64,000 nt of DNA, from positions 2,406,723 through 2,470,722 of the forward strand of contig OZ250179.1 of the NCBI GenBank assembly GCA_965238125.1, in the 5' to 3' direction. The DNA comes from Bryobacterales bacterium. GTDB lineage: Bacteria; Acidobacteriota; Terriglobia; Bryobacterales; UBA6623. The notes beneath the pieces were generated by a model, which searched no databases, was not told the DNA's origin, and worked only from the letters and a program-made list of their open reading frames with translations. A program made the translations under genes and the position numbers. This document shows positions 13,879 to 56,439 of the stretch, piece by piece. Position 1 is the first letter of the stretch, and every line of letters starts with the position of its first letter.

Positions 13879-13924
13879 GGATGTCGCCACGAATGGCGAC
13901 ACGACTCGCCTGGAGGCGCGCGCC
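13879..13924 (+). repeat. Intergenic hairpin repeat, family 1
   Basis: ggatgtcgccacgaatggcgacacgactcgcctggaggcgcgcgcc. Stem tgtcgcca/tggcgaca with a cgaa loop. Confidence 0.8.
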
Positions 13925-13976
13925 GCGTCCGCCGCCGAGAATAGAGACTTGCCCTGGTCGACGATAATGAATCGAG

Positions 13977-14884: not shown

Positions 14885-14923
14885 CATCCAGGCGAGCCGT
14901 GTCGCCATTTGTGGCGACATGTC
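14885..14923 (-). repeat. Intergenic hairpin repeat, family 1 (inverted orientation)
   Basis: The reverse complement reads gacatgtcgccacaaatggcgacacggctcgcctggatg. Confidence 0.8.
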
Positions 14924-34826: not shown

Positions 34827-35919
34827 TTGAGCCTCGCAAAACAAAGTGACACCTTTTTGGGGTACGTACGTCTTTGTATGTATGGGAAATACAAAAGGCG
34901 TACGGCGGGATTTCGAGGCCCTGGAGAAGCGCCGTTTCAAAGCGATCCGGTTGGTCGAGCAAGGCTGTAGTCAGTCCGAGACAGCGAGGCGATTGAAGGT
35001 CGCGCGGCAAAGCGTCAGCGAGTGGCTGCGACGATACCGGCGTGACGGCGAAGCCGGGTTGCGCCAGGCCGGCCGCGCCGGCCGTAAGCCGCTGTTGGAC
35101 GCCGCGCAGCTCGAACGCCTCGAGGCGTTGCTGCTGGAAGGCCCCGAGGCGCACGGCTTCCCGACGCCGCTGTGGAGCTGTCCGCGGGTCGCTCGTCTGA
35201 TCGGAGACGAGTTCGGCGTGCGCTATCACGAGGGCCATGTCTGGAAGATCCTGCGGGCGCTCGGTTGGAGCCCGCAACGGCCCGTCGGCAAAGCGCGGGA
35301 GCGCAACGAAGAGGCCATCCGCGGCTGGCAGCGCAAGACTTGGCCGGCCATTAAAAAAAAGCCCGCAAAGAAGAACGTACGATCGTCTTCATCGACGAAA
35401 GCGGATTGAGTCAGAAGCCGCATCGTTGCCGCACCTGGGCGCCGCGCGGCGAGACACCGGTGTTGGAGTTCAACTTCAACTGGGACAAGCTGTCGGTGTC
35501 GGCCGGGCTGACGTTGCGCAACTTTTACTTCCGGCTCTATCCCGGCGCGATCGGCGAGCTGGAGGTCATCGACTTCCTGAAGGCTTTGGTGCGCCACATC
35601 GACGGCCCACTGCTGATCGTCTGGGACCGGCTGCCGGCGCACCGCAGCCGCCTGGTGCGGGAGTTTATCCAGCTCTCCGAGGATCACATCGCAACGGAGT
35701 ACTTGCCGCCCTATGCGCCGGAGTTGAACCCGGTGGAATACATTTGGGCGTACTGGAAGCAGCACGAGTTGCCCAACGTCTGCCCGAAGGACTACTGGGA
35801 ACTCGACGAGCGCGCCCGCAAAGCGCTGCGGCGAATGCGCCGCAAACCGCGCTTGATTACCGCTTTCTGGAAACAGTCTTCTCTTTGTCTCGATTCACAG
35901 TATATTATGCGAGACTCAG
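34827..35919 (+). mobile_element. IS630-family element, copy A (1093 bp), flanked by TA
   Basis: Terminal inverted repeats ttgagcctcgcaaaa.. and ..ttatgcgagactcag. TA at 34825-34826 and 35920-35921. Confidence 0.85.
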
Positions 35920-36047
35920 TAGAGTTCTTATCGGCGGCGTTTCGCCTCTTCCAAAGTAGGTCCACACATGCTCAATGCGTAGGACGCGACGGCGAGTGGG
36001 GCCGATATCTCGGGCAGGCAGTTATGAGCTTCGCGGCGGTTTATTGA
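34882..36047 (+). CDS. IS630-family transposase (orfA-orfB joined by -1 frameshift); natural stop lost, so it reads 44 codons past the IS end
   Basis: orfA has an HTH region (ETARRLKVARQSVSEWLRRY). After the A8 tract the -1 frame gives ARKEERTIVFIDESGLSQKP..LIVWDRLPAHRS..YAPELNPVEYIW (DDE). Copy B has tga where copy A has tca (35896-35898). Confidence 0.8.
35353..35360 (+). promoter_or_regulatory. A8 slippery tract (A AAA AAG type), putative programmed -1 frameshift site
   Basis: gcc att aaa aaa aag ccc. The orfB frame is open from here and carries the DDE domain. Confidence 0.7.
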
Positions 36048-36099
36048 GTCTCGTAAAATAGAGTGACACTTTTTGGTGTTGCCGTACGTATTCTTATGT

Positions 36100-37115
36100 A
36101 TGGGAACACCGAAAGGAAAGCGCCGCGATTTCGAAGCATTGGAGAAACGTCGTTTCGAAGCGATGCGTTTGCTCGATGAAGGACTCAATCAGTCCGAAAC
36201 CGCCAGGCGTCTGACAGTCGCCCGCCAAACCGTCAGTGAGTGGCGACGACAGTACCTGGCGCAAGGCGAGGCCGGGCTGCGCAAGGCCGGCCGCGCCGGC
36301 CGCAAGCCGCTATTAGACGCCACGCAGCTCGAACGCCTGGAGATCCTGCTGCTCGAAGGCCCCGAGGCGCACGGCTTCCCGACGCCGTTGTGGAGTTGTC
36401 CGCGGGTGGCTCGTCTGATCCGAGACGAGTTCGGCGTGCGCTATCACGAGGGCCATGTCTGGAAGATCCTGCGGGCGCTCGGCTGGAGCCCGCAACGCCC
36501 GGTCGGCAAAGCCCGCGAGCGCAACGAAGAGGCCATCCGCGACTGGAAGTGCAAGAGGTGGCCGGCCATTAAAAAAAAGCCCGCAAACAAGACCGCACGA
36601 TCGTCTTCATCGACGAAAGCGGATGGAGTCAGAAGCCGCATCGTTGCCGCACCTGGGCGCCGCGCGGCGAGACGCCGCTGCTGGAGTTCAACTTCAATTG
36701 GCAGAAGCTTTCGGTGTCGGCCGGGTTGACGTTGCGCAACTTTTACTTTCGGCTCTATCCCGGCGCGATTGGCGAGTTGGAGGTCATCGACTTTCTGAAG
36801 GCCTTGGTTCGCCACATGGACGGCCCGTTGATGATCGTCTGGGACCGCTTGCCGGCGCATCGCAGTCGGATGGTGCGAGAGTTCATTGAACTCTCGCAAG
36901 GCCATATCGTGACGGAGTATTTGCCGGCGTATGCGCCGGAGCTGAATCCGGTGGAATACATCTGGGCGTACTGGAAACAGCACGAGTTGCCGAACGTCTG
37001 TCCGAAGGACTACTGGGAACTCGACGAACGTGCCCGCAAAACGCTGCGGCGCATGCGCCGCAAACCGCGCTTGATTACCGCTTTCTGGAAACAGTCTTCT
37101 CTTTGTCTCGATTGA
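36100..37115 (+). CDS. IS630-family transposase (orfA-orfB, -1 frameshift at 36571-36578)
   Basis: Same architecture as copy A. The -1 frame gives ARKQDRTIVFIDESGWSQKP..MIVWDRLPAHRS..YAPELNPVEYIW. Stop at 37113-37115. Confidence 0.8.
36571..36578 (+). promoter_or_regulatory. A8 slippery tract, putative programmed -1 frameshift site
   Basis: gcc att aaa aaa aag ccc, the same context as copy A. Confidence 0.7.
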
Positions 37116-37754
37116 CAGGATATTATGCGAGACTCAATAGGGTGAGCCGCCGTCCACAAGTTTTGAGTCCGCGCGTGACCCAACTTACAACGGGACATGC
37201 AAAAAAGGGGCGATGATGCGTCTTATCAACAGAGGCCGGAACGAATTGGAAGGGCGACCGGCAATCAGCGCCTTGTTTGCCCTCCCTCGGTCCGGCCAAT
37301 CTCAGTTCGTCCGTGCAGTGAACCACACGACCCGGCGCGGGAGGTTTACCTCCTTTTTCCCTCCCGCGCCGGGGGGCCGAGAGCCTTCGCTTCGTTTCGA
37401 CGGTTTCCTTAGGTCCACTCGATGCTCCTTGCCAAGGCGATGGCGCCGGGGTTGCGCCATGAAACCGGATCGTTGGGTCGTCGGCACCGCGGTTCCACCA
37501 CTGTCCTTTGGGCCGAACGGCGTCGGCGCATACCGCTTACTGACGTGCGCGGCTCAGTTTGGGCGACGTTGCTCCGGGTCCCACGTTGGTTACAGTGAAG
37601 CGTACCTCCACCCCATCCCGCAGGGCGACAACCGCCGCGCCCAAACTTCACAAAACAGATACTGAGATGGGATGAGAGGCTGGTCGCTTGGAGCCGGGAA
37701 GCGGTAGGCTACCGGCAGCAGCGCACTTCTCCACAAGGGAGGTGCAATGGATTT

Positions 37755-38972
37755 TTGAAAAGGAGGCGACCAGCCATGAAGAAGAATAGCAAACAACAGA
37801 CCGACAAGAACCAAACCGACAAACACCAAACCAAGAAAGCCGACAGCTCACAAGCGAAGACCCGCCAACTCACCCAGCTCGAACAACAGTTGGCGCAACA
37901 ACGCATCCAGATGCAAAAAGACAACGAAATTTGCGCCGTCGCCGGCGTCGACATCGGCGACAAACGTTGCTTCGTACGGCTCACCGACCTCGCCGGCGAA
38001 AGCCTCGAGGAATGCCAAGTCCCCACCCGCCCGGAGGTCTTGGATCGCTGGTTCCGCCGTTGGCCGCGGCTGCGCATTGTGATCGAAACCGGCAGCCACA
38101 GCAACTGGATTCGCCGCCGCCTGGCCGCCCTCGCCCACGACGTGCTCGTCGCCGACGCGCGGCAATTGCGTTTAATCAGCCAATCCGACTCGAAAAACGA
38201 CCGCAACGACGCCTATTGGTTGGCCGAGCTGGGACGCACCAACCCGGCCCTGTTGAATCCCGTCGCGCCGCGCAAGCTCGAGACCGAACAACAACGCACG
38301 TTGTTGCGGGCGCGCGAGGCCGTGCTCGAGTGCCGCACGAAATTGAAAGGGAGTTTGCGCGGCATGGCGAAGTCGCACGGCATCCGCTTGGGCCAATGCG
38401 CCCAGAACCAATGGGTCGAGCGCGTCCGGGAGGCCTGCCCCGAGGTGTTGCACGCGGCGTTGTTGGGGGTGGCGACACAAATCGAAAGCCTCGGCGCGAC
38501 GATCCGCGAATATGACAAACAAATCGTCGCGTTGGGCAAGCAATACGCAGCGGTCGAGCGGCTGCGAACGATCGGAGGGGTGGGGCCGCTGACGGCGTTG
38601 ACGTTCGTGTTGGCGCTCGACAACGACCCGGGCCGCGTGAAGCGTTCGCGGCAGGTCGGCGCGCTGGTGGGGCTGCGTCCCAAGCAACGCCAATCGGGCG
38701 AGCGGTCACTGCGGCTGGGCGTGACGAAATCGGGAGATCCGCTGCTGCGGCGGACGTTGATTCAGTGCGCGCACTGGGTGCTGGGGCCGTTCGGGACCGA
38801 CTCCACGCTCAGGCGCTGGGGTTTGGGTTTGGCGGCGCGCGGCGGAGGACATGCGAAGAAGCGGGCGGTGGTGGCGGTGGCGCGCAAGTTGGCGGTGCTG
38901 ATGCATGTGTTGTGGGTGAAACAAGAAAACTACGATCCGCTGCACGGGCTGACGGAAACGGTTTCCCCATAA
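37755..38972 (+). CDS. IS110-family (DEDD) transposase/recombinase
   Basis: 405 aa. Differs from 24892..26109 at two residues. Confidence 0.95.
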   Translation: MKRRRPAMKKNSKQQTDKNQTDKHQTKKADSSQAKTRQLTQLEQQLAQQRIQMQKDNEICAVAGVDIGDKRCFVRLTDLAGESLEECQVPTRPEVLDRWFRRWPRLRIVIETGSHSNWIRRRLAALAHDVLVADARQLRLISQSDSKNDRNDAYWLAELGRTNPALLNPVAPRKLETEQQRTLLRAREAVLECRTKLKGSLRGMAKSHGIRLGQCAQNQWVERVREACPEVLHAALLGVATQIESLGATIREYDKQIVALGKQYAAVERLRTIGGVGPLTALTFVLALDNDPGRVKRSRQVGALVGLRPKQRQSGERSLRLGVTKSGDPLLRRTLIQCAHWVLGPFGTDSTLRRWGLGLAARGGGHAKKRAVVAVARKLAVLMHVLWVKQENYDPLHGLTETVSP

Positions 38973-39276
38973 GGCAGGGACGATGAGGCGCAGTCGGCGG
39001 CAACGGTTTCGGATGAAGCAACGTGATGAGGACATCCGCGAGCCCCCTAACGGGGACTCGGCGGCAAGAAGATTCCTGTTGAAAGGAAGGGAGTAGGGGA
39101 TTGGGCGGACGAAGCGAGGCCGCGGCGGAGAATCGAGATCGTGTCACGGTGACTGCGGGCTCTGGGCAGGCAGGCCGATTCTTTCGAGGATGGGTCGAAG
39201 CCGCAACAGAGAGAGCAGCGCCGAAAGACCGGACCCCAACCAGCAGAGGTCAACAACGAGACCGATAACACTGCGA

Positions 39277-39489
39277 ATGGAAGCCCGGTCCTCAACGCGC
39301 CGCAAGGCATGAGGACCCGGGCCGGATCCGACAAACCGACCAACGCCTCCCAACGACCGCCCTTGACAAGCGACCCACCTCTCATGGAAGCCCGGTCCTC
39401 AACGCGCCGCAAGGCATGAGGACCCGGGCCGGATCCGACAAACCGACCAACGCCTCCCAACGACCGCCCTTGACAAGGACCCACCTCTC
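39277..39489 (+). repeat. Tandem duplication (107 + 106 bp) of the 3' sub-terminal region of IS110 copy 2
   Basis: Units 39277-39383 and 39384-39489. Each starts with atggaagccc and contains the strong hairpin gcccggtcctca..tgaggacccgggc and the right sub-terminal inverted repeat. Copy 1 has a single unit (26414-26520). Confidence 0.9.
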
Positions 39490-39706
39490 ATGGAGCCCAG
39501 AGCGCAAGCGACGGGCCAAGGGCACACAACCGCCAAGTGCTCCGGCACCGCGGTCGCGTCGAACGATCGTTCCTACGCCCCGTCCACGTCCGGGGCTTAT
39601 CGTGATTCTTGGGTGGAGGACTCCGGCTTCCGCTTCGCTCCACCTTGGGCTACTGTCCGCCGCCCCCTACCGCGGGCTGCGGCGGCGGTTGCAGTAAGAT
39701 TGAGCG

Positions 39707-40648
39707 GTGGGAAGCGGCGAAAAAAGGGCGGGGTTGCAACGGTTGATCGCCGGTGCCGTGTTCGACATCACCGGGGTGGGCCTGATCGCTTTTTCCTTGA
39801 TCCAGCAACGGGACGAACTGCTGTGGGTGGGCGTGGGCCTGATGGCGGTCGGATCGATGTTGATCGTCGGATGGGCGCGCGAACAGTCGCGCCTGGAAGC
39901 GGCGACGCCGACACAGAAACCGGTCGCGGAGTGGTTGGTGGAGCCGGAACTGGCGCTGCCGCCGCCTCGCCGTGTGGAGCTCACCTCGACGGGCCGCTGG
40001 CGGCTATGGCTTTGGCTTGCCGCGGTCGCGGCGGCTGTGCTCTATACGAACGGGTATCCGCGAAGAGCGCAGCCGATGGAGGCGGCCTTTGCGGAGTTCG
40101 GGGTGGAAACCGAAGCGATTGTCCACGACAAGCAGCAGCGCACAAGCGCGGGCGGCGAGCCCCGCTACTACCTCTACTACCATTTCGAGGATCGGCGGGG
40201 CGAACAGGTTCGAGCTTCAACGGCGGTCGGCGAGAGCGTCTACGCGTCTCACGGTGAAGGCGATAGGATTCGGGTGGTCTATCTTGCCAACGATCCGCTT
40301 TCGCATCAGATCCAAGGCGTCGAGGACGACCGTTTGCGGCCGGAAGGGCTGGCGGCGTTGGCCGCGCTGGCGGCGGCGTTGACGGCACTCGAGCTGCAAC
40401 GCCGAAAGCACAAGCGCTTGGTCACGGCGGGATCAGCGGTGGGCGGGACGGTCTTGGAGGTGTCGCGAACCGGCGCGGCGTCGAAGTACACGGTCTCGGT
40501 GGAGACGGGCGGGGCGGAGAGGACGCTGCGGCACTCCGAGCGGGCTTGTCGGCTGCGGGTTGGCGACCGTGTGACGGTGTTGTATTGGCCGGATATGCCG
40601 TCGGACATGGTGCTTTATCGGGGGGCGGTTTATCGGGCGTTGGGGTGA
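39707..40648 (+). CDS. Membrane protein with two DUF3592-like modules
   Basis: TM segments followed by beta-rich modules (EAIVHDKQQRTSAGGEPRYYLYYHFEDRRGEQV..GDRIRVVYLANDP, and a second ..GDRVTVLYWPDMP). GTG start. Confidence 0.6.
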   Translation: MGSGEKRAGLQRLIAGAVFDITGVGLIAFSLIQQRDELLWVGVGLMAVGSMLIVGWAREQSRLEAATPTQKPVAEWLVEPELALPPPRRVELTSTGRWRLWLWLAAVAAAVLYTNGYPRRAQPMEAAFAEFGVETEAIVHDKQQRTSAGGEPRYYLYYHFEDRRGEQVRASTAVGESVYASHGEGDRIRVVYLANDPLSHQIQGVEDDRLRPEGLAALAALAAALTALELQRRKHKRLVTAGSAVGGTVLEVSRTGAASKYTVSVETGGAERTLRHSERACRLRVGDRVTVLYWPDMPSDMVLYRGAVYRALG

Positions 40649-40706
40649 AGGTGCGGGCGGCGGGTTTGCGTGAGGGGCCTTTGGTGTTGTCGCGGGGACG
40701 CTACGC

Positions 40707-40755
40707 GGGACATGTCGGCACGAATGCCGACACGGCTCGCCTGGAGGCGCGCGCC
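40707..40755 (+). repeat. Intergenic hairpin repeat, family 1
   Basis: gggacatgtcggcacgaatgccgacacggctcgcctggaggcgcgcgcc. Confidence 0.8.
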
Positions 40756-40910
40756 ACGTCTTGCCGTCGGGCTTTGAAAGGCGTGGGCAGGGGCTAAATG
40801 CTTGCGTTTCACGGGTTTGATGGTGCATAGTGAGAGCGTTATGCTGCGGCCGCGAACGGGTCGAGGCGTTACGACCATGACTTCCGGGCGGTTGATAGGC
40901 GATATGGACG

Positions 40911-42170
40911 ATGGAGAGCCCCAGAGTAGACGCGCCCATCGTCTACCTCACGGAATTGACCGGCATGCGCGTCGACGGCCCCAAAGGCCGGCGCATCGGA
41001 CGCATCCGCGAGGTGGCGATCGCTCCGAGCGAACACGCGCGACGTGTGTCTCGCTTTTTGCTCGGGGGCGGCAAAACGGCCTTCATGGTGCGTCAGGACC
41101 AGGTGCGTTCGATTTCCCCCGAACGCGTTGAACTCGCCGACGACCGCTTCGTTCCCTACTATCCCGACGAAGGCTTGCTGCTGCTCGGCAAAGACCTTCT
41201 CGACCAGCAAATCGTCGACGTCAACGGACGCAAGGTCGTTCGCGTCAACGACGTCGCTCTGCGCATCGTTTCGATCAACGGTCACGACGAGCTGTGGATT
41301 GAAGAGGTCGGCGTGGGGTTGCAAGGGGCTTTCCGCCGACTGACGGAAGGGGTTTTGCCGGCAACGTTGATTCGGCGGCTGCAACAGCGCATCAAACCCA
41401 ACTCGATCCCCTGGGACTACTGCAATATCGTCGAGCCCGACCCGCAACGGCGCCTCACGCTGAAGATTTCGCACGACCGCATCGGCCGCATTCACCCGGC
41501 CGATCTAGCCGACATTGTGGAGGACCTGCCCCCGGCCGAACGCGAGGCGCTGTTTGAAACCCTGGACGATCACGTCGCGGCCGAGGCGCTGAGCGAGGTG
41601 GACCCGAAAATTCAAGTTTCGATCGTCGAGCACCTCGACAAAGAACGAGCCGCCGACATTCTCGAGGAAATGGCGCCGGACTCCGCCGCCGATGTGTTGG
41701 GCGAATTGCACGAGGAAACGAGCCTGGAAATCCTCAAGGATATGGAGGACGTTCCGGCGGCGGAAGTCGAGGAGCTGCTCGAGTACGAAGAAGATACAGC
41801 AGGGGGGCTGATGAACACCCAGTTCGTGGCGCTCCAAGAACACGCTCTGGTGAAGGACGCCGCCGCCGCTTTCGAAGACCACCAGAACCTGCTGCCAACC
41901 TTGACCCACATATTCCTGACCGACGCGAAGGACCACCTGATCGGCGTCGTGCCGGTGGCTCGACTTACCGTCGCCGAACCGCGCACGCCGTTGCGCAAGT
42001 TGGCGGTGCTGGACGTGGTGACGGTTGACGTCGACGCGGACGAGGAAATGGTGGTCGAGCTTTTCGATAAGTACAATCTGTTTGCGCTGCCGGTGATCGA
42101 CGAGGATGAGGAGCTTTGCGGGGTGATTACGGCGGATGACGTGATCGGGGTCTTGGCGCCGGATCGGTAG
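40911..42170 (+). CDS. Soluble PRC-barrel / MgtE-N / tandem-CBS protein (MgtE cytosolic module without the membrane domain)
   Basis: 419 aa. Acidic helical region DLADIVEDLPPAEREALFETLDDHVAAEALSEVDP..AADILEEMAPDSAADVLGEL (MgtE_N-like), then two CBS-like repeats. It ends right after the second (..CGVITADDVIGVLAPDR) with no TM segments. Confidence 0.8.
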   Translation: MESPRVDAPIVYLTELTGMRVDGPKGRRIGRIREVAIAPSEHARRVSRFLLGGGKTAFMVRQDQVRSISPERVELADDRFVPYYPDEGLLLLGKDLLDQQIVDVNGRKVVRVNDVALRIVSINGHDELWIEEVGVGLQGAFRRLTEGVLPATLIRRLQQRIKPNSIPWDYCNIVEPDPQRRLTLKISHDRIGRIHPADLADIVEDLPPAEREALFETLDDHVAAEALSEVDPKIQVSIVEHLDKERAADILEEMAPDSAADVLGELHEETSLEILKDMEDVPAAEVEELLEYEEDTAGGLMNTQFVALQEHALVKDAAAAFEDHQNLLPTLTHIFLTDAKDHLIGVVPVARLTVAEPRTPLRKLAVLDVVTVDVDADEEMVVELFDKYNLFALPVIDEDEELCGVITADDVIGVLAPDR

Positions 42171-42184
42171 GGGGTTAGACGAGG

Positions 42185-42292
42185 GTCCGGCTGCGCGAAA
42201 AAAGGGTACAGCCACCGATTTTCGCCGTCCGTCGGCGTTGGACGGCGGGGCCTTTCGAGACGCGAAAGTCGCATGGCAGTCCCCCTTTTTCG
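42185..42292. repeat. Inverted pair of family 3 repeat arms
   Basis: gtccggctgcgcgaaaaaagggtacagccaccgattttcgcc ... gcgaaagtcgcatggcagtccccctttttcg, with a central hairpin ccgtcc..ggacgg. Confidence 0.7.
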
Positions 42293-42318
42293 TCCGTGAT
42301 TCCAATGTTTGTGGTTTT

Positions 42319-42385
42319 GGACCGACAGGAGTGTCGGTCCGGACTTTGGGCTGGGAGCGGCACGAGTGCCGGTCACTACTGGGGT
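42319..42385. repeat. Two family 2 hairpin units
   Basis: ggaccgacaggagtgtcggtccggactttgggct / gggagcggcacgagtgccggtcactactgggg. Confidence 0.7.
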
Positions 42386-42413
42386 GTCGGGGGGTGCGGA
42401 GCGCTGAAGTTTC

Positions 42414-43646
42414 ATGCTGAAGAGCTTGCGACAGCGGATGGTTGTGTTTCTGGGCGTTTTGGGGCCCGGGGTGATCACGGCTGTCGTCGACAACGACGCG
42501 GGCGGGCTGCTGATGTATTCCGAAGCCGGCGCGCGCTGGGGCTACGTCACGCTGTGGACGATGATTCCGGTCACGTTGATCTTGATCGTCACCCAGGTGA
42601 TGTGCGCTCGCATGGCGGCGGTAACCGGCAAGGGACTGTCCGACCTGATTCGGGAAGAGTTCGGGCTGCGGACGACGTTTCTGGTGATGGTGGCGCTGCT
42701 GGCGGTCAACCTGACCAACGTCACGGCCAATTTCGCGGGGATCGCCGGCTCGCTTGAATTGTTCCAAATCGACCGCGCGATCTCGGTGCCGTTGGGGGCG
42801 CTGCTGGTGTGGACGTTGGTCGTTCGCGGCACCTACCGGGTGGTGGAGAAAATTTTCCTCGTCGCAAGCTTCCTGTTCGTGGCGTATGCGATATCAGCTT
42901 TCCTCGTGAAGCCGGATTGGGACGAAGCTTTCCGTGCGATGGTGACGCCGGTGGTGAATTTCGATGGTCCTTATCTGGCGATCTTGATCGGCCTGGTGGG
43001 AACATCGGTCGCGCCCTGGATGCAGTTTTACTTGCAGGCATCCATCGTCGAAAAGGGCGTGGATCTCAAGCAGTATCCTGAGTCGCGAGCCGAGGTCGTG
43101 ATCGGCTGCGTGGTGATGGCGTTCATCAAGTTTTTCGTGATCGTCGCGTGCGCTGGAGCCATTTGGGCGCACGGACCGAGACAGATTACGGACATTTCCG
43201 AGGCCGCGGTCGCCTTGCGTCCGTTGGGCGAGTACGCCTACATCTTGTTCAGCGCGGGGCTGTTCAATGCATCGCTCCTGGCGGCGAGCGTTCTACCTCT
43301 TTCCACGGCGTATTCGGTTTGCGAAGGGTTAGGATTTGAGTCGGGAGTGAACCATCGTTTTTCGGAAGCGAAGGTCTTCTATTGGCTCTACACGCTGCTC
43401 ATCGTGGTAGGGGCGGGATTGGTATTGCTGCCGTCGTTTCCGCTGGTGCGGATGATTTTGCTTTCGCAGGTGCTGAACGGAGTATTGCTGCCGCTGATTT
43501 TGATCTTAATTTTGATTTTGGTGAATCGGCGCGGGTTGATGGGCGAGTGGGTGAACTCACCTCTCTATAACCTGGTGGCCTATGGTGCCGTCGCTATGAT
43601 AATTGTCTTGTCGGCGACGTGGGCGGTGGTTTCGATCATGGCGTAG
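42414..43646 (+). CDS. Nramp/SLC11-family divalent cation transporter with non-canonical metal site
   Basis: 410 aa, about 11 TM. TM1 reads AVVDNDAGGLLMYSEAGA where canonical Nramps have DPGN. TM6 reads GLVGTSVAPWMQFYLQAS where they have G.(T/I)(V/I)MPH. Confidence 0.85.
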   Translation: MLKSLRQRMVVFLGVLGPGVITAVVDNDAGGLLMYSEAGARWGYVTLWTMIPVTLILIVTQVMCARMAAVTGKGLSDLIREEFGLRTTFLVMVALLAVNLTNVTANFAGIAGSLELFQIDRAISVPLGALLVWTLVVRGTYRVVEKIFLVASFLFVAYAISAFLVKPDWDEAFRAMVTPVVNFDGPYLAILIGLVGTSVAPWMQFYLQASIVEKGVDLKQYPESRAEVVIGCVVMAFIKFFVIVACAGAIWAHGPRQITDISEAAVALRPLGEYAYILFSAGLFNASLLAASVLPLSTAYSVCEGLGFESGVNHRFSEAKVFYWLYTLLIVVGAGLVLLPSFPLVRMILLSQVLNGVLLPLILILILILVNRRGLMGEWVNSPLYNLVAYGAVAMIIVLSATWAVVSIMA

Positions 43647-43724
43647 CGACTGTTCCCCGCCCCGCTCGCCCCCCGCTCCCCTCGCCCCCGCTCCAATGAA
43701 CGGCCCGATGCCGGCGCGTTAATC

Positions 43725-44513
43725 ATGGATTACTTTGTTGTCGGGCTGGTTTCGATGGCGGTCGCGGCCCTAACCCTGTTTTCGGGGTTCGGGCTGGGGT
43801 CGCTGCTGATGCCGGCGTTCGCGCTGTTTTTTCCCCTGCATGTGGCGGTCGGCGCCACGGCGATTGTTCACCTGGCGAACAACCTATTCAAGCTGGCCCT
43901 GGTGGGCAAGCATGCGTCGCTGCCGATCGCCTTGCGGTTCGGCGGACCGGCGGTGCCGGCGGCCTTCGCGGGAGCACTGATTCTCGGGTCGATCGCCGCC
44001 GGGGATGCGCTGCTGACCTACACCCTGGCGGGCCGCTCGTTTTCGATTACGCTTGTCGGGTTGGTGATGGGATTGCTGATCTTGGTCTTTTCGCTCGCCG
44101 ACTTGCTGCCGTTTTTCGATCGTCTCCGGTTAGGGATGCCGTGGCTGCCGGTCGGAGGTGTTCTATCGGGGCTGTTCGGCGGAATTTCGGGACATCAAGG
44201 GGCGCTGCGGGCGGCGTTTCTGATCAATTGCGGGTTGGGGCGAGATGCATTCATTGGAACGAACGTCGTCTGCGCGGTGATGGTCGATGTTGTTCGACTG
44301 ACGGTCTACGGAACAATGTTTCTTTCGGGCAATCTCGCGGCGACCGACGGCCCCCCGATCGTCGGGTTGGTATTGGCGGCGACGGGATCGGCCTTTTGCG
44401 GATCCTTCCTGGGTGCTCGCTACATGAAAAAGGTGACCTTGGGTACCGTGAGGCGCTTGGTAGGGGCGTTGCTGTTGCTGTTGGGATTGGCGGTCGCCGC
44501 GGGCTGGGTTTGA
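43725..44513 (+). CDS. TauE/SafE (TSUP) family anion exporter-like membrane protein
   Basis: 262 aa with two internally repeated 4-TM halves. Contains FSGFGLGSLLMPAFALFF and GGISGHQGALRAAFL. Confidence 0.8.
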   Translation: MDYFVVGLVSMAVAALTLFSGFGLGSLLMPAFALFFPLHVAVGATAIVHLANNLFKLALVGKHASLPIALRFGGPAVPAAFAGALILGSIAAGDALLTYTLAGRSFSITLVGLVMGLLILVFSLADLLPFFDRLRLGMPWLPVGGVLSGLFGGISGHQGALRAAFLINCGLGRDAFIGTNVVCAVMVDVVRLTVYGTMFLSGNLAATDGPPIVGLVLAATGSAFCGSFLGARYMKKVTLGTVRRLVGALLLLLGLAVAAGWV

Positions 44514-44797
44514 GCGTTTTTCTCGACGGGACCGAGCGTCGGAGAGGGATGCGAAGCGGCGTGGGCTGGGAGGGCGCGGCGTCAACCGGCGACGGGTTAC
44601 CCGTTCAACCCCAAAAAATCCTCGTTCAGCCGATTTTTCCGCCCAACTAGGGTTGTTCCTGTTGGCCTGCATGGTTGAACCATGCTATTCTGACCTTGTC
44701 TACACAAGCAAATTTGGTTTCAAACCTTGGTCGGGCAGCCGCTTTGCGATTGCCCGACTTTTTTGTGGGGTCAAGACTCTTCGCGGCGAGGGCAGAG

Positions 44798-44856
44798 GAC
44801 ATGTCGGCACGAATGCCGACATACACGAATGCCGACACGGCTCTTCTGGAGGCTCA
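44798..44856 (+). repeat. Intergenic hairpin repeat, family 1 (with internal 13-nt reiteration)
   Basis: ggacatgtcggcacgaatgccgacatacacgaatgccgacacggctcttctggaggc. Confidence 0.75.
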
Positions 44857-44870
44857 TACTCGTCCGCTGT

Positions 44871-46307
44871 TTAGCTCAAAATGTCGTGGACGACATGGCC
44901 GTGGACGTCGGTGAGGCTGACGTCGCGGCCGCCGAAGCGGTAGGTCAGCCGTTCGTGGTCCAGACCGAAAAGGTGCAGGATGGTGGCGTGGATGTCGTGC
45001 ACCGTGGTGATGTTCTCGACCGAATGCATGCCCATCTCATCGGTTGCGCCGTAGACGGTGCCGCCCTTGATCCCGGCGCCGGCCATCCATATTGAAAACG
45101 CGGTTTCGTGATGGTCGCGGCCGTGCGCGTTGCCCGTGTGGGGCGTGCGACCGAACTCAGTCCCCCAAACGACCAGAGTCTCATCGAGCATGCCGCGCGA
45201 GCGCAGGTCTTTGATCAGCGCGGTGACGCCTTGGTCAGTGATGAAGGCATTGTTCCAGTGGTTTTCCTTGAGATCGGTGTGCTGGTCCCAGGTGCCGTTA
45301 TTGCCGCCGTAGAGGTCCGGGCAGGTCACTTCAACGAATCGCACACCGGCTTCGATCAGGCGGCGGGCACGAAGACACTGCAGGCTGTAGTGGTACTTGG
45401 GCTTGTGGGTCGTATCGAGCCCGTACAACTTCTTCGTCGCTTCGCTCTCCCGATCGAGGTTCAGCACATCGGGAACGAGCGATTGCATGCGGTAAGCCAG
45501 CTCGTAGTTGTAGATCGCCGACTCGACCGCGTCGTCAGAGCCCGTCGAGGCGAGAAACGAGCGATCTTGCGCCAACAGGGCGTCAAGCTTGGCCCGCTGC
45601 ACGCGCGGGTTCTCATCGGAGGGAACGATGTTGTCGATCGGCGTTCCCTTGGCCTTCACCAGCATGGCCTGATAGGTGGCCGGCAGAAAGCCGTTGGCGT
45701 AGCTTTCCAAGCCGCCCGGAGGAATGGTTCCGCCGTGCAACAGGACGTACCCGGGCAGGTCCCTATTCTCGCTGCCGAGGCCGTAGTTGATCCATGACCC
45801 GAGGCTGGGGTGACCACCCACCGAACGGCCCGTGTGCATCAGCATATTGCCGCGCGGATGTAGCGGGAAGCCGGTCTTCATCGAGCGGACCACCGCTAAT
45901 TCATCGGCGCAGGTCGCGAGGTGCGGAAATACGTCGCTGATGGGAATGCCGGATTCGCCGTAGCGGTGAAACTCAAAGGGGCATTTCTTCCATTTACGGC
46001 GACCGTCCGGGGTCTGATTCTCTCCGTGAAGCTCGGCCAGCTTGGGCTTCGGGTCGAAGGTATCGACGTGCGAAACCGCGCCCGGCATGTAGCAGAAGAT
46101 GATGTTCTTGGCCTTGGGCGCGAAATGCGGTCCGGTGGGGCCGGAGAGCCCGGCGTAAGAATCCTCGGCCATCAACGAGGAAAGCGCCAGCAGACCGAAG
46201 CCGTTCGAGGCGTAGGTCAGCATCTGGCGGCGCGTCATGGGGCGCGCGCCGTAACCGGGGCAAGCCTTTCCAGTTGTCAACTGCTCTTGACTCGTCTCGT
46301 GACTCAT
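44871..46307 (-). CDS. DUF1501 domain protein (sulfatase-fold, Tat-signal)
   Basis: TRRQMLTYASNGFGLLALSSL. Typical partner and position downstream of a DUF1553/PSCyt gene. Confidence 0.85.
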   Translation of the reverse strand: MSHETSQEQLTTGKACPGYGARPMTRRQMLTYASNGFGLLALSSLMAEDSYAGLSGPTGPHFAPKAKNIIFCYMPGAVSHVDTFDPKPKLAELHGENQTPDGRRKWKKCPFEFHRYGESGIPISDVFPHLATCADELAVVRSMKTGFPLHPRGNMLMHTGRSVGGHPSLGSWINYGLGSENRDLPGYVLLHGGTIPPGGLESYANGFLPATYQAMLVKAKGTPIDNIVPSDENPRVQRAKLDALLAQDRSFLASTGSDDAVESAIYNYELAYRMQSLVPDVLNLDRESEATKKLYGLDTTHKPKYHYSLQCLRARRLIEAGVRFVEVTCPDLYGGNNGTWDQHTDLKENHWNNAFITDQGVTALIKDLRSRGMLDETLVVWGTEFGRTPHTGNAHGRDHHETAFSIWMAGAGIKGGTVYGATDEMGMHSVENITTVHDIHATILHLFGLDHERLTYRFGGRDVSLTDVHGHVVHDILS

Positions 46308-46334
46308 GGAGACTACACTTCCTCTATCGCAACT

Positions 46335-49300
46335 TTAGCGCAGGTAGATGAACTCCTTCAAGTTGAAAAGCGCGTGAGCGATGTCTTTCCACACGGCGCG
46401 CGACTTCAGCAGCTCCTCGCGATTGACGCCGTGCAGCGAGCCCATCTCGGCCGCCAGGCCTCGCAGCCGGGTCAGTTCCGCGGCGTCAGGCCGACGAGCC
46501 AGTGCCGTTTCAAACATGTCGGCAATGCGTCTCTCTACATCCATCTCCGAATCGGCCATCACGCGATCAGCCCAGAAACCGGCTTGCTCGATCACGAAGG
46601 GGTGATTGAGCAACGCCAACGACTGCCCGGGAATATTCGTCACGTCGCGCCGCCCCCGACTCACGCCGGGATTCGGGAAATCAAACAGCTCGAGAAAACG
46701 GTCGCCCTCGTGACGGGTAACCTTGATGTAAATGCTTCGTCGGCCGCCGCCGTCGAGCGGCCCGGAATAGAGCTTGCGATATTCCTGCGGGTCTTCGCGG
46801 TAGGGATGAATACTGCTTCCGAACATCTCAGGGTTCAACGTGCCGGCTGTCGTCAAGATCGCATCGCGGACTAACTCCGCGTCCAACCGTCTGACCGGAT
46901 AGCGATGCAGCAGGAGATTGCCCGGGTCGCGCGCCCTACCGACTTCCGAAAGCGTGCTCGACTGACGAAACGTTTCGGTCAACACCAGTTGCCGTATCAG
47001 CTGCTTGATCGACCAGCCTTGTTCAATGAACTGCCCGGCCAGATGATCGAGCAATTCCGGATGCGACGGTTTCTCGCCGACGCGCCCGAAGTTGTTGACC
47101 GTCGCGACGATTCCGCAGCCGAAAACGTAGTGCCAGATGCGGTTGGCCATCACCCGCGCGGTGAGAGGGTTTTCGGGGTCGGCGATCGCCTCGGCGATTT
47201 CGCGCCGGCCGCTGCGCTCGACCTCAAAACCATTGGGGGCTTTCGTGATCAATTGCAGAAAGCCGCGGGGCGCGGGCTCGCCCAAGTTCTTGGGATCGCC
47301 GCGCTTCATGATCGGGTAGTCGCGGCCTTCCTCGACATCGGCCATCCCGTAGACCACGCGGGGCTCGGGAACATCGGACTCGACGGCGCGATATCGTCCG
47401 ACCAAATCCGCCAAGCGCCGGTCGACGTGCACCGAATTGGCGACCAGTTCGTTGTCCACCAACCAGTCCACCCAGCGGGCATCGTCGTCGGTCGCGCGGC
47501 CGGCGGCCCAGGCCTCGATCGCCCTGGCACCCTCGGCGGCAAAACGTTGAGCCAGCTCTTCGAAGCTTTTCGGCGACGAGCCGTCGAAGAGGCGTTTGAG
47601 ATGGGTCAGTTCGTCCTCGGGTACGGCTTCGCAGTCGTGGACTACCACGCGAGCAATCCCGAAATACGAGCGCGGCTGGTCGAGCAACGAAAGGTCGAGC
47701 CCCTCCATGCGGCCCGGGCGATCCGGAAAGCGCGGGTTGTCGTGCCGCGTCGCCATTTCGACATAGAAGGGATAGGAATGCTGCTCGAAGCGGGTGGGAA
47801 TCCGCACCCATTCGAGATTGTTGTTGTCGATCGGCTTGTAATCCTCGGCCAACATGCAGTTGTCGAGCGTGGCCCGCCAGGAACCGAGCTTGCCGCCCAT
47901 CACCTGCATGCTGACGAAGAGCTTGTCTTGCGGCACAAAGGGCGATCGGATCGCCGCGTTGAATTTCTCGGAAAGCGCGTGGGTGTACAGACCGGCGGGA
48001 AAGACGCCGCCCAGCACGCGGGGGCCCTCGGGAGCGATCGTGAATTCGCCGGGCGGTGAGGCGGCGTCGGTCAGCGCCTGCCCTTCGCCGGACCAATCAT
48101 GGAGCGAGCCGTCACGGAAGTCGACGAAGTCCTCGAAATAGACCCGGTTGAACTCGACGCGCGAAGCGGTTTCCTTGTGATAGCGGGCGGTGAGGCTCTT
48201 CCAGTTTTCGAGGAAATCACCCGCTGCTTGGTCGGCGAGTCGAGTAAGCTCGACCCAGAGATAGAGGGGGTCGTCCCATTTGATTTTCTCCCGCGCGAAA
48301 AGGACCGGAGCGGGAGTGTCTTCTTTCTCGGCGTCGGTGGCATCCTTGTCGGCCGACTTGTCGGCGTCGGCAGCGGGCTCTTGATCGGCCTCGGCGTTTT
48401 CCGTGTCGGTGTCGGCGGGTTTGTCGTCCGCTTCAGCCGACTCGGCTTCTTTCGCCTCGGCCTCTTCGGCCTCTTCTTTGTCAGGGCGTGGGCGATGTTT
48501 CCACGAGGAGTACGCCTCGCTCAGCCGCGTGGCGATTTGAGTGTCTTGCTTGATCCACAGCGAAGCCAAAGCGTCGCGAATCTTGGGCTTGAGTTGCCGC
48601 ATCTTCTCGCGGCGGGCTTCGTTGAGCTCGCGGGTGTCGAGCGTCCGCGTCACCAGTCGCGAGCTGCTAAGCACGCTGTAGAGCCCGTAGTAGTCTTTGG
48701 TCGGAATCGGGTCGAGCTTGTGATCGTGGCAGCGGGCGCAGGCAATCGTCAGCCCTTGGAAGGCCTTCCCGAGCACATCGATCTGGTCGTCGACGACATC
48801 CGTTCGGACCTCGCGGAAAAGAATGCAATCGTCGTGGCCTTGTTCGCCGAGGCGATAGAAATTCAGCCCGGCAAGCGATTCGTTAATGCCGTCTTGCTCG
48901 TTGATGCGCGACTCGTCGAGCAGGTCGCCCGCGATATGCTCGCGGATGAGTTGATCATAAGGTACGTCTTTGTTGAAAGCCCGAATCAAGTAATCGCGGT
49001 AGTGCGACGCCCCGTTGAGCTCGTAATTCCAGTCGTTACCGAAAGTCTCGGCGAAGCGCACCACGTCCATCCAATGCCGCGCCCAGTGCTCGCCGAAATG
49101 GACGGAGGCCAACAGCTCTTCGACCGCCTTTTCGTAACCGGCGGACGAGGGGTCGGCGGCGAATCGGGCCAGCTGCTCGGGGCTTGGCGGAAGGCCCGTC
49201 AGCACGAAACTCACACGGCGGAGCAAGGTTGCCGGATCGGCCGCGGGGGCGGGCGCAAGTTCGGCCTCGACAAGCTTGCGGCGAATGAAACGGTCAACCG

Positions 49301-49826
49301 GCGAAAGCGCCTTTCCGGAGGGGTCCTGTCGCGGCGGCGCAACTTTCTTCACAGGCTGAAACGCCCAATGCTCCCTCGTGATCTGCTCGTAAAATTCCGG
49401 GTCGCCGGAACCGAGCGGTTGATCTTTCTCGGCGGGCCAGGGCGCGCCTATCGAGATCCACTTTTCGATCGCCGCGATTTGGCCGTCGGCAAGCTTCCCG
49501 CTGGGAGGCATTTCGAAGCCTTCATGACGGACAACTCGGGCAAGAAGACTGCTTTCGGCATCGCCGAGAATGATCGCCGGTCCGCGGCTGCCGCCGGCCA
49601 GAATCGCCTCGCGCGAATCGAGCCGCAACCCCTTCTGTTGTAATTGCGAGCCGTGGCAGACATAGCACTGTTCGGCGAGTACCGGCCGCACTTCTTTCTC
49701 GAAAAATTCGAGGTCTTCGGCGGAACCATCGGCGGCCTGTAGGGGAGAGACCGCGGCCGAGACGAAAAACAGAAGAAGGGCCGCGCCGAACCGGCCCGCG
49801 AAACAAATCGTCCCCCGAAAAATCAT
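46335..49826 (-). CDS. PSCyt1/PSCyt2(DUF1549)/PSD1(DUF1553) planctomycete cytochrome-c domain protein
   Basis: FFEKEVRPVLAEQCYVCHG plus the CARCHDHKLDPI motif. ATG 49826 (MIFRGTICFAGRFGAALLLFFVSAAVSPLQA) is preferred, because the upstream part of the ORF lies in a repeat. Confidence 0.9.
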   Translation of the reverse strand: MIFRGTICFAGRFGAALLLFFVSAAVSPLQAADGSAEDLEFFEKEVRPVLAEQCYVCHGSQLQQKGLRLDSREAILAGGSRGPAIILGDAESSLLARVVRHEGFEMPPSGKLADGQIAAIEKWISIGAPWPAEKDQPLGSGDPEFYEQITREHWAFQPVKKVAPPRQDPSGKALSPVDRFIRRKLVEAELAPAPAADPATLLRRVSFVLTGLPPSPEQLARFAADPSSAGYEKAVEELLASVHFGEHWARHWMDVVRFAETFGNDWNYELNGASHYRDYLIRAFNKDVPYDQLIREHIAGDLLDESRINEQDGINESLAGLNFYRLGEQGHDDCILFREVRTDVVDDQIDVLGKAFQGLTIACARCHDHKLDPIPTKDYYGLYSVLSSSRLVTRTLDTRELNEARREKMRQLKPKIRDALASLWIKQDTQIATRLSEAYSSWKHRPRPDKEEAEEAEAKEAESAEADDKPADTDTENAEADQEPAADADKSADKDATDAEKEDTPAPVLFAREKIKWDDPLYLWVELTRLADQAAGDFLENWKSLTARYHKETASRVEFNRVYFEDFVDFRDGSLHDWSGEGQALTDAASPPGEFTIAPEGPRVLGGVFPAGLYTHALSEKFNAAIRSPFVPQDKLFVSMQVMGGKLGSWRATLDNCMLAEDYKPIDNNNLEWVRIPTRFEQHSYPFYVEMATRHDNPRFPDRPGRMEGLDLSLLDQPRSYFGIARVVVHDCEAVPEDELTHLKRLFDGSSPKSFEELAQRFAAEGARAIEAWAAGRATDDDARWVDWLVDNELVANSVHVDRRLADLVGRYRAVESDVPEPRVVYGMADVEEGRDYPIMKRGDPKNLGEPAPRGFLQLITKAPNGFEVERSGRREIAEAIADPENPLTARVMANRIWHYVFGCGIVATVNNFGRVGEKPSHPELLDHLAGQFIEQGWSIKQLIRQLVLTETFRQSSTLSEVGRARDPGNLLLHRYPVRRLDAELVRDAILTTAGTLNPEMFGSSIHPYREDPQEYRKLYSGPLDGGGRRSIYIKVTRHEGDRFLELFDFPNPGVSRGRRDVTNIPGQSLALLNHPFVIEQAGFWADRVMADSEMDVERRIADMFETALARRPDAAELTRLRGLAAEMGSLHGVNREELLKSRAVWKDIAHALFNLKEFIYLR

Positions 49827-49862
49827 GCTGGTTCCAGTGTAACGCCCCCCCAACCGCCAGGA

Positions 49863-49968
49863 GCGAAAAAGGGGGGCTGCCACCGATTTTCGCCTACCCA
49901 ACTGCGTCAAGTCCAAATCAGTCCCAGCGAAAATCGGCTGACTGTCCCCCTTTTTCGCGTAGCCGGAC
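49863..49968. repeat. Inverted pair of family 3 repeat arms
   Basis: gcgaaaaaggggggctgccaccgattttcgc ... gcgaaaatcggctgactgtccccctttttcgcgtagccggac. Confidence 0.75.
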
Positions 49969-56357: not shown

Positions 56358-56392
56358 ACGCCGCAATCCCCCGATGCCGAACGTCCCGACGT

Positions 56393-56439
56393 GGCGCGCG
56401 TCTCCAGACGTGCCGTGTCACTATTCCTGGCGACATGTC
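56393..56439 (-). repeat. Intergenic hairpin repeat, family 1 (degenerate, inverted)
   Basis: The reverse complement reads gacatgtcgccaggaatagtgacacggcacgtctggagacgcgcgc. Confidence 0.65.

Follow-up and report, generated by a model that had tools for sequence, protein, structure and literature searches.

The 64,000-nucleotide (nt) stretch of a Bryobacterales genome analyzed here (contig OZ250179.1 of assembly GCA_965238125.1, positions 2,406,723 to 2,470,722; "the window") carries at 40911-42170, on the + strand, a gene with an ATG start that encodes a soluble MgtE-like accessory protein of 419 amino acids (aa), in which tandem PRC barrels are followed by an MgtE_N domain and a CBS pair and the transmembrane (TM) domain is absent. 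We are highly confident that this protein is one of the MgtE-like cytoplasmic fragments, a widespread family whose genes lie immediately upstream of those for Nramp-related Mg2+ transporters (NRMT or NrmT), and that the product of 42414-43646 is its NRMT partner. The locus adds a further case to the MgtE-fragment/NrmT operons known from the literature, in the phylum that also supplied the tested pair, and the system is not of a new kind: the split arrangement, which the original prediction took to be without a known example, was already reported by Shin et al. (2014, PLoS Genet, PMC4072509), who co-expressed the pair from Acidobacterium capsulatum.

According to those authors, most NrmT genes adjoin a gene for a homolog of the MgtE N-terminal cytoplasmic domain, and many such pairs are co-transcribed under M-box Mg2+ riboswitches; in C. 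acetobutylicum (the Ca_c0685 operon) the MgtE-like fragment is itself split into two genes. The A. capsulatum pair (Acp2976/Acp2977), which is also without an M-box, was co-expressed in B. subtilis deficient in Mg2+ transport, and the NrmT of that pair, mainly a Mn2+ importer, gave full rescue of a Mn2+ transport mutant and partial rescue of a Mg2+ mutant. For the fragment they proposed either cytoplasmic feedback regulation or a chaperone role (PMC4072509). Full-text literature searches returned no work on the fragment later than this study, and a survey of MgtE architectures from 2025 took the MgtE TM domain as its starting point, which left proteins without TM helices outside its scope.

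The open reading frame (ORF) is present exactly as the original prediction had it, and the description of its product as a stand-alone MgtE cytosolic module, with neither pore nor TM helices, is confirmed by several lines of evidence. In Pfam, MgtE_N (PF03448) matches residues 194-295 (41490-41795, + strand) with an E-value of 6.8e-26 over the full profile (1-102), and a CBS match covers residues 368-415 (E 7.7e-15). The CBS pair as a whole extends over approximately residues 300-416 (41808-42158, + strand), its limits being taken from the alignment to 2yvy and 2yvx, which ends at residue 416, with per-residue confidence (pLDDT) of 91-94 in the full-length AlphaFold2 (AF2) model. The best sequence match in the PDB is the cytosolic domain of T. 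thermophilus MgtE (TtMgtE; 2yvy, E 1.7e-31, residues 190-416, both CBS motifs included), and the same structure is the top Foldseek match of the full-length AF2 model (E 5.6e-21, 34% identity), in which residues 200-415 have a pLDDT of 80-94. The protein had also been said to end right after the second CBS domain, and it does: the alignment to 2yvy runs to residue 416 of 419, which is TtMgtE residue 253, and three residues remain before the stop codon, which is equivalent to approximately TtMgtE residue 256 and precedes the position of the plug helix of MgtE.

The mgtE equivalog profile of NCBIfam (TIGR00400) is matched only at positions 26-251 of 450, with 252-450 unmatched, so that the protein corresponds to the cytosolic half of MgtE only; its score of 140.6 bits, against a cut-off of 232.75, is below the threshold, and it is therefore not an MgtE channel. 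The MgtE pore domain (PF01769) has no Pfam match in the protein. Neither is there a TM helix, the maximum 19-residue Kyte-Doolittle mean being 1.09, with 0 windows above 1.6 (the neighboring transporter, for comparison, has a maximum of 2.81 and 87 windows above 1.6). A weak FliG_M match was taken as the usual cross-match of MgtE_N. At E 1e-5 the protein has more than 8000 clusters of homologs (90% identity); 115 of the best 120 of these clusters are 410-444 aa long, and the other five (315-401 aa) look like truncated gene calls. A truncated MgtE pseudogene was ruled out, since a length of about 420 aa is kept across thousands of clusters together with invariant motifs, and this conservation of length shows that the protein is no decaying MgtE remnant.

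Almost half of the protein lies upstream of the MgtE_N domain. The original prediction placed a single PRC barrel there; the barrel is present, and there are two of them in tandem. The first (approximately residues 10-88; 40938-41174, + strand) is supported by a Pfam match to PF05239 at residues 11-54, which at 23.1 bits passes the cut-off of 21.2 (relatives score up to 47 bits), and is modeled by AF2 with a pLDDT of about 90. The second, with a helical and beta linker (approximately residues 89-190; 41175-41480, + strand), was recognized by its fold match and conserved motifs, and no other stretch of the protein is as well conserved (DLLDQQIVDVNGRKVVRVNDV, IPW and EPDPxRRL). In the first full-length AF2 model, made with 27 close homologs, residues 83-189 had a pLDDT below 50; when residues 1-192 were modeled again from a more diverse set of 126 sequences, the pLDDT was 82 and the predicted TM-score (pTM) 0.77, and the N-terminal 190 residues folded as two successive PRC barrels with short helices and strands after them. 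Foldseek placed the tandem-PRC archaeal CdpB1/CdpB2 structure 8qzo first among the PDB matches of this model (E 6e-7, TMq 0.53-0.55), ahead of single PRC barrels (8onw, 1pm3 and reaction-centre H subunits). A profile-profile comparison of barrel 1 with barrel 2 (E 2e-4, 45% probability) pairs ELLGxPVxDxxGxxxGRV with DLLDQQIIDVxGRKVVRVNDV, a weak hint, at the level of sequence, that the two arose by duplication; the fold match is firmer. The densest run of invariant residues in the family alignments also falls in the PRC module (D98, Q100, D103, G106, K108-V112, D114, G136, R142, R143, W168, E175, D177, R180 and R181), which is a likely docking surface on the NRMT. Our full-text searches found no paper that joins a PRC barrel with MgtE or NrmT.

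The partner gene (42414-43646, + strand) encodes a 410-aa protein with an Nramp domain (Pfam, E 1.4e-86). It was correctly described as the next gene on the same strand, 243 bp downstream, and as an Nramp without the canonical methionine, the position of which is occupied by Ala200. The label "atypical" needs revision, for although the protein is indeed Met-less, it falls in a recognized clade with a solved structure: it matches EleNRMT (7qia) with an E-value of 1.1e-94, whereas the MntH/DMT structures for Mn2+/Fe2+ are reached only at about 1e-18. NRMTs are defined by the binding-site motif DxxG-TxxA/T (Ramanadane et al., 2022, PMC8806188). Here the site reads D28-A-G-G31 in helix 1 (DxxG) and T197-S-V-A200 in helix 6 (TxxA), in place of DxxN and AxxM, and D28, G31, T197, A200, W202 and Q352 align with EleNRMT D55, G58, T224, A227, W229 and Q379. 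The histidines of the helix 6b H+ pathway are also replaced, with W202 standing at the position of EleNRMT W229 and Q352 at that of Q379. EleNRMT carries both Mg2+ and Mn2+, and its T224 is required for Mg2+ transport (PMC8806188). The product of 42414-43646 is thus a member of the NRMT clade of SLC11 and, on these aligned residues, a predicted Mg2+ transporter; because the clade is a recognized one of Mg2+ transporters, a link between this gene and an MgtE-type module is expected and not surprising.

The original prediction turned on whether the two genes co-occur in other genomes, and they do. The closest genomes are metagenome-assembled genomes (MAGs) of Bryobacterales (Acidobacteriota), with 95-96% identity, and a same-strand NRMT gene lies downstream in 7/7 genome loci; two additional locus look-ups gave the same gene order. 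A metagenome scan added 80 further loci (48-86% identity). Among the loci for which 400 nt or more of sequence downstream was available, an NRMT gene was found directly downstream on the same strand in 60 of 77 (78%), and the association held to about 50% identity. The two genes are a median of about 13 nt apart (range -1 to 192 nt; 62 pairs with both ends placed); the listed ORFs of locus L005 overlap by 4 nt and those of L007 are 3 nt apart. In most genomes the pair is a tight operon, probably with translational coupling, and a tight operon is clearly the ancestral arrangement.

Variants of the arrangement were also seen. In locus L089 (4001-6759) one gene has only the PRC part (230 aa) and the next, overlapping it by 14 nt, has MgtE_N and CBS (214 aa); an Nramp gene follows. 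This is either a genuine split of the kind seen in C. acetobutylicum or an assembly frameshift. Two proteins, P0258 (621 aa) and P0266 (611 aa), have the tandem-PRC, MgtE_N and double CBS module fused to a C-terminal region of about 5 TM helices with a sub-threshold PF01769 match (E 0.006), and may represent a divergent lineage of PRC-bearing, MgtE-like channels.

To see which of the MgtE cytosolic Mg2+ sites persist, we took the TtMgtE site definitions from PMC5882242 and mapped them on 27 aligned sequences of the family. At Mg4, TtMgtE D91 and D247 correspond to D257 and D410 here (kept in 24/27 and 27/27, respectively); at Mg6, D95 corresponds to D261 (27/27); and at Mg7, E59 corresponds to E225 (acidic in 22/27). 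Mg5 is lost, TtMgtE D226 and D250 being replaced by N389, which is invariant, and G413, a position held by Ser or Ala in the 26 remaining sequences. For E258 and D259 of the plug helix (Mg2 and Mg3) there is no equivalent in a protein that ends near TtMgtE residue 256. As far as can be read from the alignment, the family would have kept the sites that hold the N and CBS domains together and lost those that couple to the MgtE pore.

On the simplest reading, the soluble protein may act in trans as a cytosolic Mg2+ sensor for the NRMT, a role that we infer from the sequence with about even chances of being right. Under this mechanism, high cytosolic Mg2+ would be bound by the acidic residues that bridge MgtE_N and CBS (D257/D410 of Mg4, D261 of Mg6 and E225 of Mg7), locking the module in a compact state which, docked on the transporter, would restrain NRMT transport. 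The output of the switch would have to be delivered via a surface other than that used by MgtE, and the invariant tandem PRC module would be the best candidate. MgtE and CorA have their feedback control built into the same polypeptide; the fragment would give it to the NRMT, which by itself would be a bare carrier of 11-12 TM helices without such control. Taken as a whole (the identity of the two proteins, the trans-acting sensor and the operon), we judge this account to stand slightly better than even odds of being the right explanation.

A number of observations weigh against this reading. Co-expression of the A. capsulatum fragment gave no further Mg2+ rescue (PMC4072509), although this negative result is not decisive, because no gain in rescue is to be expected from an inhibitor. 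NRMTs function without the fragment, both in complementation (PMC4072509) and in proteoliposomes (PMC8806188), and the literature searched reports no fragment-NRMT interaction or regulatory effect. Three of the MgtE sites (Mg5, Mg2 and Mg3) are missing. A permissive Rfam scan of 39000-45000 gave no match to any family at E<=1, the M-box and other riboswitches included. The enlarged spacer of 243 nt makes co-transcription in this genome uncertain, and a scan for promoters and terminators gave no consensus signal within it. A search for natural fusions, made with the two proteins concatenated, returned only two singleton MgtE_N-CBS-Nramp proteins (P0271 and P0276); both are N-terminally truncated, P0276 is clearly frameshifted and P0271 has an anomalous C-terminal tail, and they were set aside as artefacts of assembly or gene calling. 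Lastly, 17 of the 77 homologs have no NRMT gene within the available 0.5-3 kb downstream (L013, L014, L017, L018, L021, L025, L026, L031, L033, L052, L058, L061, L062, L068, L074, L079 and L088). These unlinked loci form several small clades nested among the linked ones, and their downstream genes are varied; in L017 and L079 a frataxin/CyaY-like gene lies directly downstream of the homolog.

The unlinked clades with their varied neighbors, the P0258 and P0266 proteins, in which the same module is fused to a divergent domain of 5 TM helices, and the failure of the concatenated-protein search to find a genuine Nramp fusion would all fit a function independent of the NRMT, such as general CBS-domain signaling with other partners, in which case adjacency would reflect co-regulation only. 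We regard this as improbable: such close adjacency (78% of loci, gaps of a few nt, still seen at about 50% identity) goes far beyond what loose co-regulation would produce, and the unlinked copies could act in trans on an NRMT encoded elsewhere.

The nature of the ligand also has to be considered. With Mg5, Mg2 and Mg3 lost and no M-box at this locus, the protein could instead be a regulator tuned to Mn2+, to another divalent metal or, via its CBS pair, to adenine nucleotides, and the acidobacterial NRMT would then serve mainly for Mn2+ uptake. CBS pairs do bind ATP, that of MgtE itself included (5x9g); EleNRMT also carries Mn2+; and in A. capsulatum, of the same phylum, the Mn2+ mutant was fully rescued by NrmT and the Mg2+ mutant only partly, Shin et al. 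themselves suggesting that the fragment there may respond to Mn2+ (PMC4072509). Set against these points are the full NRMT Mg2+ signature of the partner, including T197 (EleNRMT T224), and the conserved ligands of Mg4, Mg6 and Mg7, and we consider a Mn2+ or nucleotide regulator unlikely.

The fragment might, alternatively, not be a gate at all and might serve as a metal chaperone or buffer that handles the cation at the cytosolic face, or as an assembly or stability factor that aids folding or oligomerization of the NRMT. Shin et al. offered the chaperone as an alternative (PMC4072509), the MgtE_N domain is very acidic, PRC barrels are often protein-protein adaptors (CdpB1/B2, RimM and the reaction-centre H subunit), and EleNRMT on its own is unstable in detergent (PMC8806188). 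Free cellular Mg2+ is, however, millimolar, so that a chaperone seems unnecessary (as PMC4072509 also points out), and the residues that have been retained are specifically the inter-domain sensor sites of MgtE; the odds of a chaperone or assembly role seem to us poor.

The trans-acting Mg2+ sensor can also be put in a stronger form, which we offer tentatively and think somewhat doubtful. Here the tandem-PRC/MgtE_N/CBS protein would be an obligatory, detachable gating subunit that attaches through its double PRC barrel to the cytosolic side of the NRMT and closes the carrier when Mg2+ bridges the N and CBS domains, and the module would serve other membrane partners as well (the 5-TM fusions of P0258/P0266 and the unlinked paralogs beside frataxin-like genes). 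If true, it would be the first time that a secondary transporter of the LeuT fold is controlled by a Mg2+ sensor that derives from a channel and has its own gene. Among bacterial Mg2+ importers the NRMTs count as the fourth class; MgtE and CorA have built-in cytosolic Mg2+ sensors, and the conserved accessory gene is an obvious candidate for the control of NRMT activity.

The spacer in this genome (42171-42413) is, at 243 nt, the largest seen, as compared with 70 nt in the sister MAG loci L001 and L002, 184 nt in L003 and 52 nt in L004. Alignment with these four loci places one insertion at approximately 42219-42277, unique to this genome, and another at approximately 42278-42392, common to L003; L001 and L002 have neither. 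Both insertions are hairpin-rich, and pieces of the spacer match elsewhere in the window (49927-49968 and 28314-28346). The original prediction of a gap filled with repeat elements was therefore broadly right, in that the extra sequence consists of hairpin-rich insertions absent from sister genomes, with parts that recur within the window. Mobile hairpin elements would have stretched the spacer to its present length. The fold of the whole spacer as RNA is not significant (z = -1.6), no sigma-70-like promoter was found in 40400-44900, and terminator-like sites in the same interval were at chance level, none of them inside the spacer.

A TauE/SafE-family membrane protein gene (43725-44513, + strand; Pfam TauE, E 3.3e-16) begins 78 nt downstream of the NRMT gene. 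It was rejected as a member of the system: it is found downstream only in L001-L004 and L009, being linked only in relatives of at least 86% identity, and is probably not part of the conserved pair. A REP-like palindromic element at 40708-40748 (repeat families D2, D4 and I2) has a second copy at 44797-44853, so that the block of three genes (MgtE-like, NRMT and TauE) lies between these copies; the element (GGACATGTCGGCACGAATGCCGACA plus a conserved tail) is intergenic, with further copies at approximately 13881-13929, 14887-14923 and 56388-56419. Upstream of the pair, a gene for a DUF3592-containing membrane protein (39707-40648) keeps its position only in the closest MAGs (L001-L003), and beyond it lies an insertion sequence (IS) cluster (35406-38972) with two IS630-like copies (DDE_3 + HTH), the second of them frameshifted (36073-37115), and an IS110-family transposase gene (37755-38972). 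On the - strand, 44871-49916 holds a DUF1501 gene (478 aa) beside a PSCyt1/PSCyt2/PSD1 gene (1193 aa), a pairing typical of Planctomycetes and some Acidobacteria and unrelated to the MgtE-like/NRMT pair.

Each part of the system can be set beside a known counterpart. The transporter resembles EleNRMT of Eggerthella lenta (7qia, PMC8806188) over its full length (E 1e-94), with identical D, G, T, A, W and Q at the equivalents of 55, 58, 224, 227, 229 and 379; it differs in having Asn106 at the equivalent of Glu133 in alpha-3, and the eLife study of EleNRMT did not consider an accessory protein. The first 190 residues of the MgtE-like protein have their best structural match in CdpB1/CdpB2 (8qzo, 8onw), which likewise consist of two consecutive PRC barrels; identity is 13-14%, however, and these are cell-division factors without MgtE_N or CBS domains, so the likeness is one of fold only. 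The remainder shares with the cytosolic domain of T. thermophilus MgtE (2yvy, 2yvx, 2zy9, 5x9g) the superhelical MgtE_N domain and the CBS pair (34% identity over about 230 residues) as well as the acidic ligands of Mg4, Mg6 and Mg7, whereas the Mg5 ligands are replaced (N389 and G413), the tandem PRC module is an N-terminal addition, and the Mg1, Mg2 and Mg3 sites are absent because the protein is without the plug helix and the TM pore domain.

The closest counterparts are the fragment/NrmT pairs of Shin et al. (PMC4072509), in which, as here, a soluble homolog of the MgtE cytoplasmic domain is encoded immediately upstream and on the same strand as a transporter with the NRMT signature; the tested A. 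capsulatum pair shares in addition the phylum of this locus and the lack of an M-box riboswitch. The published description of those pairs does not mention a tandem PRC-barrel module of about 190 residues, and the spacer, usually a few nucleotides, is 243 nt here. To the hypothesis of 2014 the present locus and its relatives add the adjacency numbers, a map of the Mg2+ sites, the double PRC barrel that makes up almost half of the protein and a spacer swollen by insertions, an advance that is incremental.

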